A DNA stretch of 64,000 nt, taken from assembly GCA_028534125.1 (NCBI GenBank), contig CM052817.1:32736001-32800000 (forward strand), written 5' to 3'. The DNA is from Lama glama. Its lineage: Eukaryota. Shown here one piece after another: positions 100 to 43,222 of the stretch. The notes below the pieces were generated by a model, which was not told the origin of the DNA, did no database searches, and worked only from the letters and a program-made list of their open reading frames with translations. The position numbers and the translations under genes are program-made. Each line of letters starts with the position of its first letter. Position 1 is the stretch's first letter.

Positions 100-537
100 T
101 ATTGGGAGGAAAACTTTTTCTTTACCAACTTAGGTTGAAGTAGTTGGGAGAGGGGGGCTGTGAAATAAGACAGATTAATAGGAACAAAGATTATTATACA
201 CAAATGCAGGAGCAAGGTATAAGGACTAAGGCTCTATATGCCAGCTTAATGAGGGGTGGGGGAGGGTATTAAGGCTGCAGTGGGAAAGTGTGGAAGGTTC
301 TCATAGGAAGTATTTACAAAATTCCTTGGCAGGTCCTGCTGCCAAGTCAGGCTCCACCCTAAAGAAAGCTCCCTGAGAGAGGAGTTTATGGCAGCTGAAT
401 TCTCAGAAAGACCTGCTTTACTCATCAAAGGGAAGTTTAGAGAAGGCTTTTTTTCCCTTCTCTTGCAGCTATTGTTTGTCCAGATGTCCTCAGTTTAAAA
501 TAGTCTTTATATCATTTTAGTGGGGTTAGTCCCTTCA
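100..537 (-). mobile_element. Degenerate 3' LTR of the MER34-type ERV1 provirus
   Basis: Minus strand starts tgaagggactaaccccactaaaatg...gactattttaaactgagg after a short purine run (agggaaa) and ends ...ctattaatctgtctt...gaaaaagttttcctccca. This resembles recalled MER34/MER39 LTR termini and lies directly 3' of env. Confidence 0.7.
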
Positions 538-2075
538 TTTCCCTGCATGTAACTTGTCACGAAGTTTCACAGGCAAGGAGCTGGAGAGACTGCTGTGGAG
601 AGACCTGGCTTAGAAGTTGGGAGGTAAGAGAACTGTGAACAAAAACACAGATAACGAGGATAAAGGAGTATTACAGAACAAATCCCAACACATAGCCCCA
701 TCTCTCCCTGCACCAGCCTCTCATTCTCAAGAATAGGTCCCTCCAAATAAACCATGCTTCACCATTCGACCTAGATTGTTGACATGTTCTTTCAAACAGT
801 TCAGGTTGATACTGTGTCTTTTCCTGAATTATTCACATACAAGCAGCATTGTATGCCAGTGACGGCACGCTGTGTTCCTTGTTGGGCAGCCCACATAGCC
901 AGGAGATGATGATGTTGGAGCACAGATGTGAAATGGCCGACCCAATCGGTGTGCTTTCGAGGTCTGCAGGGTGGCAGTGAATACTTGTTCCATTACTTTG
1001 GAAATGTTCAGAATTGCTTCTTCTAGGTCAGAAGTTCTCAAATTTGGAAAGAGTGTCTTTATTGAATTAGAATTGCAATGCATGGGCAGATTGCCTATGA
1101 TGTCTTATCGGGTGCATCTATGTGGAGCCCAGGTTTGTAGCATTTAATGTGGGGTACCTTGTGGGGGAAGGTGTCAGGTATCCAAGTCCACATCGCCCTG
1201 ACCATTTAGGTGGGAACTCTTTATATATCTTATTGCCACATAAACAGACCAGAGACAAGGTAACAGAGAAGGTCAGAGTGGAGACTGTGACCTGTCAGGT
1301 TGGAGTTCAGTGTCCGTGGTGGCCTTTGTCATTGGTTCTGTTGGCATCTGTACATCTCAGTTTCCCACGTGTCTCTGTCAGGCTGTAAGAGCAAAATAGG
1401 TTGCGAAGACCAGCAGTCTGCTTTGGCAGCTATCAAGATAGGAATTGTTCCCAGACCGAGTCATGCCAGAATTTTGGTCTACACATGTGTAGCCTTGGGT
1501 ATCAGGCAGACCAACTGAGGGAACAGCTGAGCTATTCCAGGTCACATCTGGGTGGCATGCAAACCAGGAATACTGTCCAGTGCCTAGGCAAACATCTGTA
1601 TTATTATAATCAGCCTTGAATTCATTTATAACATCTGTGGAGGGTTTGAAGGTGCCATCTATGGAATCAAACCAGTGTTTGATTACAGTATTGTTTTGGT
1701 ATGTTGCCTAGGAAGGGTCCAGTGTCGTTTCTATTTTCAATGCAAAGAGAAAAATTCCTCTCCAGCAGCCTCACCTGAGTGAAGGATAGACCTTGAGCTT
1801 CCATGGGAGTGCCCCAGTGCCAAACCACCCTGCCATACATAGGAGGCAGGGTGCCTTTCCTACAGCCACTGTCCGGAATGGGTTTACCAGGTGCTTGCAC
1901 TGGCATGAATGGAAACTAGTTCGGGTTCGTGCGTGTTGTTTAGATGCTGACATAACCAGCAATCAGACTGATGAGTTAAGGTGCCAGGGTTTGGAAGATT
2001 GGTGGGGGCTGAGCTAAAATTGTTGAGAAAGCAGAAAAAGTTGGCTAGAACAACACAATTTGAAAGGGAGCCCAT
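495..2075 (-). pseudogene. ERVMER34-1: Disabled orthologue of the endogenous retroviral envelope gene HEMO (MER34 env), with many stops and frameshifts
   Basis: Minus-strand frames give collinear matches to human HEMO as recalled: MGSLSN start (ATG 2075, context ccactATGg); LTHQSDCWLCQHLNNTHEPELVSIHASASTW*; WHWGTPMEAQGLSFTQVRLLERNFSLCIENRNDTGPFLGNIPKQYCNQ; WFDSIDGTFKPS; TWNSSAVPSVGLPDTQ; LFPNLRTSDLEEAILNISKVMEQ; QCCLYVNNS; WGYVL; SPQQSLQLLACETS*QVTCREMKGLT. Stops at 1884-1886, 1105-1107, 557-559 and elsewhere. Confidence 0.93.
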
Positions 2076-2294
2076 AGTGGAGGAGCAGAGGGAGGGCTGG
2101 TGAAGGCAAGCAACCTCCAGCTAATCTTTCTATAATTGTAACAGGAGGGGTTCTGTTTAAATTTCTAGGTTCAGAGACTTTTCCAGGTCAGGGAGAGGAA
2201 AGGTTTCTAGGGGACATAAATGGAGACAAAATTCCTGATGAGAGATCTTGGGTAAAGCTGTCTGTTTCATGGCATTGCCTGCTTCTGGAGCCTG

Positions 2295-2525
2295 AGCAAG
2301 CACTGAAAATCTTCAGTTTGAGGTCACTGATAGGGATGGGTTTCTAATTGTCCTGGGGGTGATGATCTGGATCTAGCATGGTGTCTCCTGTGAATCCAAG
2401 AGGACTTTTATTCTAATGACAGTGTAGATGTAAGTTAGTGGTCCTTCCTAAGGCCTCTCCCAGAGAGGTGGCACTGTATGTTTTCTTCGAATACTCATCT
2501 CTTGGAAGAAAGGGATGGCAAGGCC
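2295..2525 (-). mobile_element. Remnant of ERV1 pol (integrase C-terminus)
   Basis: Minus-strand fragments EGP, SWIH (2401-2390) and PQDN*KPIPISDLKLKIF (ending ~2305) resemble the GPY..WIH..DLKL end of gamma-type integrase, in the expected position upstream of env. Confidence 0.65.
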
Positions 2526-2949
2526 TGTCAGTGAAGACCATGCTTCAGTGACAAATATTAACACTGGTACCATCAATGCCAAGGTTAGATTTGAATTCAC
2601 CACTTGTGCTCTGAGCTGTGTAAAAATATCACAAAGGTGCTTAAAATGAAAGGAAATTTTCTTTTGGTTCAGCTGTGACTCCAGACAGGATCCAAAGAGG
2701 AGTTCTACAATCTCTTCTCTGGGTTTTATGGAGACTTACTTTACCTGTGTTAGCCTCTTAAGGCACTGAGTCAGCCTTAAAAGGACACAGGAAAGGGCGA
2801 TCTGGGTTTTTCACAAAGTTCTCTACGATTTCCTGAACTCCTCTCCCGTCAATACACCTGGACCTCAGCAGTTCCTTTAACGAGTCCGAAAACCCACTAG
2901 AAGCAGCTGTTCTGCTTGTGAACATCCGTTTCCTTTGTTAAAGGAGAGC

Positions 2950-3800
2950 TGGATTCCGGCCTTTGCTCCAAGCACGTGCCTGGAAACGCTCTGGTGGCCA
3001 TTGGCCACGTACTCGGGCCCGGGTCATTTCACGTCACTCAAGGACGGACATACCTGTGCTTAGAACTCAGGCCGCTGCACCGCAGACGTCGGAGACAAAC
3101 TCCCAGGCCCACAGTGGGTCCGAGATCCGCTCTTACTGCCGCAGCCGGGGTCGGGCCCCGAACCCGCTACAAAGTAGCGGCGGCTGCGCCCTGGGGAAAA
3201 AGCAAAGCACAAACTTGTTACTGCGCGGGTCCTGCCCTCCGGGAAGCCTCCGAGCGACCCGCGCGGCGTGTGTGCCTCACGCGGCCCCGGGACGAGCACA
3301 ATCGCCCGCCCCACCCGGGCCGCCGAGGGCTGCTCTACCCCTGTGTTCTGGCCGCCGGGAGCAGCGGAGCTCCGGGCGGGCAAAGCTCGAAGGCATCCAG
3401 CCTTACTCGGGCCCCTCAGACCCGCCAGGGGCCCACCCTGCCGGGAGAGACCGAGAGAGCCGAAACCAAAGTAACACTCACAGCCTAACTCGCTGGGACA
3501 GAGACCCCGACCCGCAGAGACCGGGCAGGCGGGGTGGGGCCGGGAGGATGGCTGCGGGGCGGGCAGCCAATCCCTGGGAAGGTTGGGGAGGGGCGGGGCA
3601 GGAGGAGGGCTTCGGGGCGGGGCGGGAGGTGGGCGGGGGGGCAGACAGCCAGTCCCCGGGAAGGTTGGGGCAGGGCGGGGAGGGGCGGCGAGGGGCGGGC
3701 CCCTTCTAACTTGCTGCGGCGGGAGAACTAGCTGACCGTACCTGGAGCCTCAGGGTGTCAGCGTGGGAACCGGATTTATCTGGTGCCTCCCCAGGCCTGG
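2950..3800. promoter_or_regulatory. CpG island promoter, likely the non-LTR HEMO promoter firing on the minus strand
   Basis: The only dense CpG island in the window. It has several GGGGCGG GC boxes at 3530-3700 and CAGCCAATC at 3564, no TATA box, and lies upstream of env. Confidence 0.85.
3054..3190 (-). other. Predicted 137-nt non-coding exon of the HEMO-locus transcript
   Basis: Minus-strand acceptor gtaacaagtttgtgctttgctttttccccag| (AG at 3192-3191) and donor cag|gtatgt (GT at 3053-3052). Confidence 0.55.
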
Positions 3801-43082: not shown

Positions 43083-43222
43083 GAGGGCAGGGTATAGCTC
43101 AGTGTTAGAGCATGGGCCTAACATGCACAAGGTCCTGGGTTCAATCCCCAGTACCTTCATCAAAACAAACAGATAAAAACCTAATTACACCCCCCAAGTT
43201 TTTAAAATAAATATATTTTTAA
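43083..43222 (+). mobile_element. Camelid-type tRNA-derived SINE with TSD, inserted in an L2 tail
   Basis: A box tagctcagtgttagag, B box gggttcaatccc, A-rich tail; TSD aaagaatcagcta (43068-43080) / aaagaattagcta (43223-43235). Confidence 0.88.

Follow-up and report, generated by a model that had tools for sequence, protein, structure and literature searches.

The DNA analysed here, a 64,000-nucleotide stretch of the llama genome (hereafter the window, meaning the whole stretch), carries a dead HEMO/ERVMER34-1 envelope (env) gene and, just before it, an inverted cassette made from the 5' end of DANCR. The cassette in front of env is directly shown, and it offers a testable origin for the HEMO promoter. 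With moderate confidence we favour the reading that a dead camelid HEMO env follows a second, inverted copy of the 5' end of DANCR that was likely its cellular promoter in the past and was likely kept DANCR-like by gene conversion. The env fossil itself is real, orthologous and ordinary. According to excerpts of published accounts (PMC12704712, PMC10604696, PMC13461226), HEMO entered the boreoeutherian ancestor and has stayed coding in simians and cats alone, so that an orthologue in broken form is to be expected in a camelid.

The earlier note, made from the sequence alone, had proposed a near full-length fossil of HEMO/ERVMER34-1 on the minus strand, and it was correct in both identity and position. 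When cat HEMO (P0004) and human HEMO (P0017) are aligned to the minus strand of 430-2120 with frameshifts allowed and broken sites read as X, the gene appears as a series of collinear blocks that starts at the ATG (2075) and ends at about 455. Identity is 62% to cat HEMO (328 of 525 aligned residues) and likewise to human HEMO (311/500). In a tblastn search with cat HEMO the env trace is found at E = 3e-99, with no second match below E = 0.1 in the whole window. When 1378-1707 (minus strand), the longest stop-free stretch within the env fossil, is used in a search of longer proteins, lion HEMO is its single match (64% identical, E = 2.5e-28). The features of the gene, placed by these alignments to HEMO, are as follows:

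455..2075, minus strand: HEMO/ERVMER34-1 env pseudogene that starts with the ATG at 2075 and carries 8 stops and 9 frameshifts (alignment to cat and human HEMO)
1884-1886, 1860-1862, 1307-1309, 1295-1297, 1105-1107, 671-673, 557-559 and 512-514, minus strand: in-frame stops of env (frameshift-aware alignment)
near 2042, 1984, 1841, 1675, 1422, 1129, 942, 818 and 762, minus strand: frameshifts of env (frameshift-aware alignment)
1950..1961, minus strand: intact CWLC (CXXC) motif of SU (alignment to HEMO)
1075..1116, minus strand: SU/TM cleavage-site region; the columns of human C352 (1114-1116) and C364 (1075-1077) both hold Cys, and a stop lies at 1105-1107
819..941, minus strand: immunosuppressive-domain region, degenerate, together with the block of CX6CC columns, in which the motif lacks its first Cys

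The 17 disablements are evenly scattered over the gene, and the same alignment indicates deletions of about 4, 10, 5, 1, 9 and 1 codons. A ninth stop-like codon lies at the extreme end of the env tail. The first stop is at 1884-1886, exactly where the earlier note had put it; the earliest break is the frameshift near 2042, which falls within the signal peptide and precedes that stop. No full-length open reading frame is present, and the longest of the stop-free stretches of at least 100 codons has 109. The series of env motifs listed in the note held in part. CWLC is intact, whereas the cleavage site and CX6CC can be recognised by position but are broken, the former by the stop that it contains. 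CXXC in SU and CX6CC in TM are the motifs named in the excerpts of PMC12704712, from which the residue numbers C352 and C364 are also taken; of this pair, which would be expected of a functional HEMO, CX6CC has lost its first Cys. Pfam found no domain in five fragments of 41-109 residues from the window, and its TLV_coat match was restricted to the intact cat and mole proteins. The env gene of the window is dead.

Its position leaves little doubt that it is the camelid orthologue of HEMO/ERVMER34-1. The gene order around the window is USP46-DANCR-env-RASL11B. USP46 exons lie on the minus strand to the left of the window (the best match of an exon among solved structures in the PDB is USP46), and RASL11B begins about 3.2 kb to its right on the plus strand, so that both flanks named in the earlier note were found. 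A SNORA26 and mir-4449 pair lies on the plus strand about 19 kb left of the window, and because of this pair we read the locus as DANCR, in which MIR4449 occupies intron 1 and SNORA26 intron 2 (PMC7591992, in excerpt). Thus env is located between USP46-DANCR and RASL11B on the strand opposite DANCR. Presumably env lies opposite DANCR in human as well. Excerpts of the literature place DANCR between USP46 and RASL11B throughout vertebrates (PMC12694859) and give a human gene order that agrees with that of the window (PMC12694859, PMC7591992). Similarity points the same way. With frameshifts allowed, the window env scores 1436 against cat HEMO (63%), as compared to 1005 (49%), 840 (46%), 555 (40%) and 461 (46%) for four other MER34-type env remnants of the genome, these four paralogous places being drawn from a longer list of matches. 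Among the MER34-type copies compared it is the closest to both cat and human HEMO. Together, the synteny with USP46, DANCR and RASL11B and the highest score among these remnants support orthology, as the note had suggested. In a protein tree with the breaks masked, the window env groups with muntjac (support 91). The host had been described as a probable camelid, and this is borne out by RASL11B exons 1 and 4: over 203 residues, compared ungapped and leaving aside one further, misregistered row (seals), they show no difference to the Camelidae record, 1 to Bos and 2-9 to 14 others. The four paralogous remnants (G000:C35:8523650-8525104, C2:77544351-77545664, C1:86455087-86456440 and C23:3740207-3741264) are near full-length, 40-49% like cat HEMO, and each has 6-14 stops and 7-16 frameshifts.

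The 5' end of DANCR is present a second time, as an inverted duplicate located 540-1600 bases upstream of the env ATG on the strand of env; this duplicate comprises a CpG-island promoter, mir-4449, exon 2 and SNORA26. Self-alignment of 94 kb yielded one inverted repeat of about 1.1 kb, linking this place with DANCR, and Rfam detected the second SNORA26 and mir-4449 on the env strand. A genome search with 2800-3700 returned two long matches, namely the duplicate and the DANCR site. It also returned two pieces of 75-80 bases (G000:C94732:4989-5063 and C10:16273394-16273473) that match one part of the duplicated region. The exon-2-like segment in the following list is based on the DANCR exon/intron layout in excerpts of PMC7591992:

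2611..3390, minus strand: core of the inverted duplicate; the DANCR site, which lies 19-22 kb to the left, matches it at 743 of 777 aligned bases
2671..2788, minus strand: second SNORA26 copy with a 4-base deletion (126 bits versus 150 at the DANCR site; cut-off 40)
3054..3190, minus strand: DANCR exon-2-like segment, a putative exon, with an acceptor-like AG ending at 3191 and a donor-like signal at 3053
3267..3334, minus strand: second hairpin of mir-4449, scoring 71.6 bits here as in the DANCR arm (cut-off 71)
3513..3684, minus strand: promoter-like part of the duplicate with GC boxes and a CCAAT-type box, about 20-24% divergent from the DANCR promoter; donor-like signal at 3481
2751..3750, no strand: CpG island (observed/expected 0.72-0.88, G+C 57-73%)

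Divergence from DANCR is strikingly uneven along the duplicate. The core differs at 34 of 777 bases (4.4%), with 1.7% in SNORA26, 2.2% in the exon-2-like segment, 2.6% around mir-4449 and 7-8% in the rest of intron 2. It is followed by about 120 bases that are unalignable (about 50% identity, the level of chance) and then by the promoter part, in which 37 of 152 bases differ (about 24%; Fisher p = 3e-13 against the core), corresponding to a divergence of about 0.29 summed over the two arms. The promoter part is nonetheless homologous to that of DANCR, having a local score of 121 versus at most 35 in 300 shuffles and 23-45 for three other CpG islands. Human SNORA26 and the camelid DANCR-site copy differ at 8 places, and by eye the two camelid copies agree with each other at 7 of them. 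In DANCR, according to excerpts of PMC12694859, conservation throughout vertebrates is confined to two small patches. Since an exon/intron core that is 92-98% identical adjoins a far older promoter part, this mosaic is probably best explained by an old duplication with later gene conversion between it and DANCR, an age that derives from divergence alone, in camelid DNA of this locus, and that selection on the promoter or the small RNAs would blur. The layout of the duplicate fits that of a DANCR-type snoRNA host: mir-4449 and SNORA26 follow in order, splice-like signals surround a short exon, and the promoter is a CpG island.

Two side observations concern the neighbourhood of these copies. 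Hits resembling the heads of tRNA-derived SINEs are found at L010 1812-1883, window 43088-43159 and L011 612-683; one such tRNA-like hit directly follows SNORA26 at the DANCR site and has no counterpart in the duplicate. An unexplained CpG island lies between DANCR and env (L010 8500-9250; G000:C2:32724500-32725250) with CCAAT-like and GC-rich boxes at one end, and is possibly a young LTR or an orphan promoter.

Upstream of env a piece of the provirus is preserved:

2076..2540, minus strand: internal sequence of MER34 type that lies upstream of env; it has two acceptor-like AG signals (ending at 2207 and 2235), and its homology to three paralogues ends at 2491-2544

Beyond this point the paralogous proviruses keep matching one another, and no other piece of the env provirus (pol, gag or LTR) was found within -20 to +30 kb with the three paralogues as probes at this sensitivity. 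For these reasons the duplicate occupies the place where the 5' LTR and gag-pol would be expected. The DANCR-like cassette starts about 70 bases from the end of retroviral homology and points towards env. The 5' LTR is missing and a CpG island is close to env: proviral homology ends near 2540 and the island spans 2751-3750. Splice-like signals on the env strand comprise, in order, a donor-like 3481, an acceptor-like 3191, a donor-like 3053 and acceptor-like signals at 2235 and 2207. Behind env, 100-480 contains LTR-like sequence that gave short-piece matches to many contigs and no match to the flanks of the three paralogues. No canonical AATAAA is present on the env strand within 1.3 kb of the end of the gene.

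As to transcription, contigs of two RNA-library runs cover 100-2600, a stretch that ends before the duplicate, at a flat depth of about 2-6, non-exonic parts included, and contain no splice joints there; this is what DNA carry-over would give. RNA run X19 and DNA run X9 had almost no cover of 100-2600. A second snoRNA host unit at the duplicate is a putative one.

It is tempting to connect the duplicate with the promoter of HEMO in other species, for which the literature offers no description beyond 'a cellular CpG island' (PMC8978518). The DANCR duplicate is likely that island, and we rate the chance that it represents an ancestral HEMO promoter shared with primates at slightly better than even. 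Rows of human snoRNA tables (from supplements of PMC4914119, PMC8178906, PMC10234308 and PMC13736004, each in part) contain 11 members of the SNORA26 family genome-wide. Next after SNORA26 in database order is SNORA26L2 (ENSG00000212490), which lies 35,179 bases behind exon 2 of an overlapping lncRNA, has a conservation score of 0.83, similar to that of several dispersed copies, and is scored as not expressed. The host named in those tables is LINC01618, later ENSG00000293643, and not ERVMER34-1; the strand and coordinates of SNORA26L2 were not found in the searched parts of four supplements. Human DANCR and ERVMER34-1 are 28.7 kb apart. If exon 2 of the host is DANCR exon 2, which is an assumption, these two distances would place SNORA26L2 a few kb upstream of the human HEMO ATG. 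If hosts are assigned by strand, its orientation would be opposite to that of the second camelid copy. No published DANCR-HEMO promoter link and no second mir-4449 was found in the main texts of the Creative Commons part of PubMed Central and of bioRxiv; Heidmann et al. 2017 and its supplement were outside this search and may describe camelid copies or the duplicate.

Based on these observations, we propose that an inverted duplication of the DANCR 5' end might have replaced the 5' LTR and gag-pol of the provirus. In the simplest account, the duplicate would have supplied env with a CpG-island promoter and two short non-coding exons, a DANCR-type transcript splicing from exon 2, over SNORA26, into the env acceptor. 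The duplication would then be the step by which env came to be driven from a cellular CpG island, the kind of promoter reported for human HEMO. In the camelid line the protein would have been lost and env would have drifted since, while the cassette would have stayed alike via conversion with DANCR; it may now serve as a second snoRNA host, for which the dead env would be a disposable last exon. A bolder version, which we offer tentatively and give somewhat less than an even chance, is that HEMO, the most ancient of the captured env genes of humans, owes its domestication to the theft of a promoter some 100 million years ago, when the duplication spliced DANCR exons 1-2 onto env, and that gene conversion has kept the duplicate evolving in concert with DANCR ever since. 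This would explain both the CpG-island promoter and the expression in stem cells, placenta and tumours, and in camelids the duplicate would have outlived the protein as a second host of SNORA26 and mir-4449.

There are two other ways to account for this arrangement. The duplicate might have arisen later, in the camelid or cetartiodactyl line, next to an orthologous env but unrelated to the capture of HEMO, with SNORA26L2 an independent local copy. The core is just 4.4% from DANCR, the annotated host of human SNORA26L2 is a different one and this copy may lie on the other strand, and the promoter divergence of about 0.29 over two arms is not enough on its own to date the event to before the split of the orders. 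However, promoter and core are separated by sequence that retains no more than chance-level identity, which indicates an old event, and a second SNORA26 within about 35 kb of human DANCR, given 11 members genome-wide in those table rows, would be an unlikely independent coincidence; we therefore regard a late duplicate as unlikely. Far less probable still, and already largely refuted, is the idea that the env is a non-orthologous MER34 remnant or the duplicate an artefact of assembly. The genome does contain several MER34-type env remnants, one of which beats the window env in its best single tblastn piece, and the assembly has more than 1 million contigs. Yet once frameshifts are allowed the window env scores far higher, and synteny agrees. 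An artefact is difficult to reconcile with the differences between the duplicate and DANCR arms (34 core places plus indels) and with the presence of 0.77-0.89 of the words of 450-3700 in 14 DNA runs from 6 studies. Moreover, a contig of a relative runs, by eye, across the provirus-duplicate junction, so the junction is unlikely to be an assembly error.

A separate question is how long the protein survived. The earlier note took the closeness to the human protein as a mark of purifying selection; our data do not bear this out, and we consider neutral decay on the camelid branch very probable. Among columns where cat and human agree, and with proteins of other species as comparison, those invariant in four intact proteins changed in the window env about as often (51/230) as variable ones (16/55; p = 0.29). 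Compared with the substitutions of cat or human, those of the window env are not milder (p = 0.72), and in SU it has 41 private changes versus 23 in cat (p = 0.03) and 29 in human (p = 0.19). The 8 stops agree with the 8.0-10.1 expected if all amino-acid change on the branch were neutral (Poisson interval 3.5-15.8), although this test, in which nonsense is 6-7% of missense changes for the codons present, is weak. The relative mentioned above, represented by contigs of the two RNA-library runs, is 2.8% away (42 differences in 1511 bases), and the 32 in-gene differences fall 12/10/10 on codon positions 1/2/3. Hence neither the protein-level nor the codon-position tests of env show a sign of selection on the camelid branch, and an identity of 62% to HEMO fits neutral decay. 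By eye, the relative shares 8 of the 17 breaks and lacks 3 (one stop and two frameshifts), the other 6 being unresolved or uncovered; in one of the 8 shared regions both copies are out of frame, one base apart. Since 8 of the 11 resolved breaks are common to both, env was dead before the split from the relative. Dating of the loss by break counts was dropped, as with 3 window-specific breaks the interval is too wide.

The alternative that HEMO stayed functional under purifying selection for much of the camelid stem and died late, so that this copy would date the loss, draws on several of the same comparisons. The window env and the muntjac models share a 10-codon in-frame deletion, none of the 17 breaks is demonstrably common to both, and, of 43 changes at positions where cat and human have the same residue, muntjac shares no more than 7. 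Cys is retained at 10 of 11 invariant columns, and 3 of the 11 resolved breaks are missing from the relative. By eye, the muntjac models run in frame through 12 of the 17 breaks, skip the segments that contain 2 others and do not reach the remaining 3, but such models skip breaks by construction and so hide shared ones, which makes the comparison low-powered. Trp, on the other hand, is kept at only 9 of 15 columns, and constrained columns without excess conservation, the unmitigated substitutions, the excess of window-specific changes in SU over cat-specific ones, the neutral stop count and the breaks older than the split from the relative all argue against a late death, which we consider improbable. 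An early spell of weak selection may be compatible with the stop count. The shared in-frame deletion and the lack of a demonstrable shared break make it possible that the frame was open in the common ancestor of camelids and ruminants. In other words, the idea of former selection finds no support on the camelid branch but is not refuted for the short branch before the camelid-ruminant split.

The decayed cleavage region also bears on the binding of BACE2, which excerpts of PMC12704712 tie to two cysteines, 352 and 364, gained in catarrhines. The window env (1075-1116) has Cys at both columns; their spacing is 13 rather than 12, and a stop intervenes. By eye, the relative reads tyrosine at the second (C364) column, which is R, H, Y or C across species. 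Because a dead copy carries Cys at both, these columns can reach Cys without selection, and no function follows in the window copy. An origin of the second cysteine by CpG decay was dropped as unproven, given the variation of the column and the tyrosine of the relative.

If the promoter is DANCR-derived, it provides a concrete mechanism by which a captured env without an LTR could stay expressed, and it would link the regulation of HEMO, a tumour target, to the oncogenic lncRNA DANCR. In camelids, reads of DANCR exon 2, mir-4449 and SNORA26 can map to two places. Compared with simian and felid HEMO (PMC12704712 and PMC8978518, in excerpt), the window copy is alike in its locus between DANCR and RASL11B, strand, CWLC motif, lack of a 5' LTR, a CpG island just upstream and a protein trace that is 62% identical. 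It differs in having no open frame, a broken cleavage motif and CX6CC, and no sign of selection. In addition, its CpG island is identified as a DANCR duplicate, which is not stated for human in the excerpts of those two papers. Compared with DANCR (PMC7591992 and PMC12694859, in excerpt), the duplicate has the same order of promoter, mir-4449, short exon and SNORA26, with the donor 265 bases before SNORA26 as against 291 in human DANCR; unlike DANCR, it is inverted, ends about 60 bases after SNORA26, continues into proviral sequence instead of DANCR exon 3, and has only putative activity. Published accounts, as far as excerpted, name simians and carnivores alone as having coding HEMO, and the mole is not among them. 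In the mole Talpa occidentalis (P0013, two contigs) a frame of 383 residues spans the C-terminal two thirds of HEMO, and its cleavage motif looks intact. Two Logan proteins, P0016 and P0010, give a full HEMO of 578 residues that resembles lion HEMO at about 82% and represents a frame of carnivore type outside the cluster of the listed cats. Finally, the laurasiatherian HEMO genes of muntjac (P0014, P0036) and mole resemble the window copy in being broken or shortened orthologues, the 10-codon deletion being shared with muntjac, whereas the individual breaks that can be compared differ from those of the window and the mole keeps its C-terminal frame.
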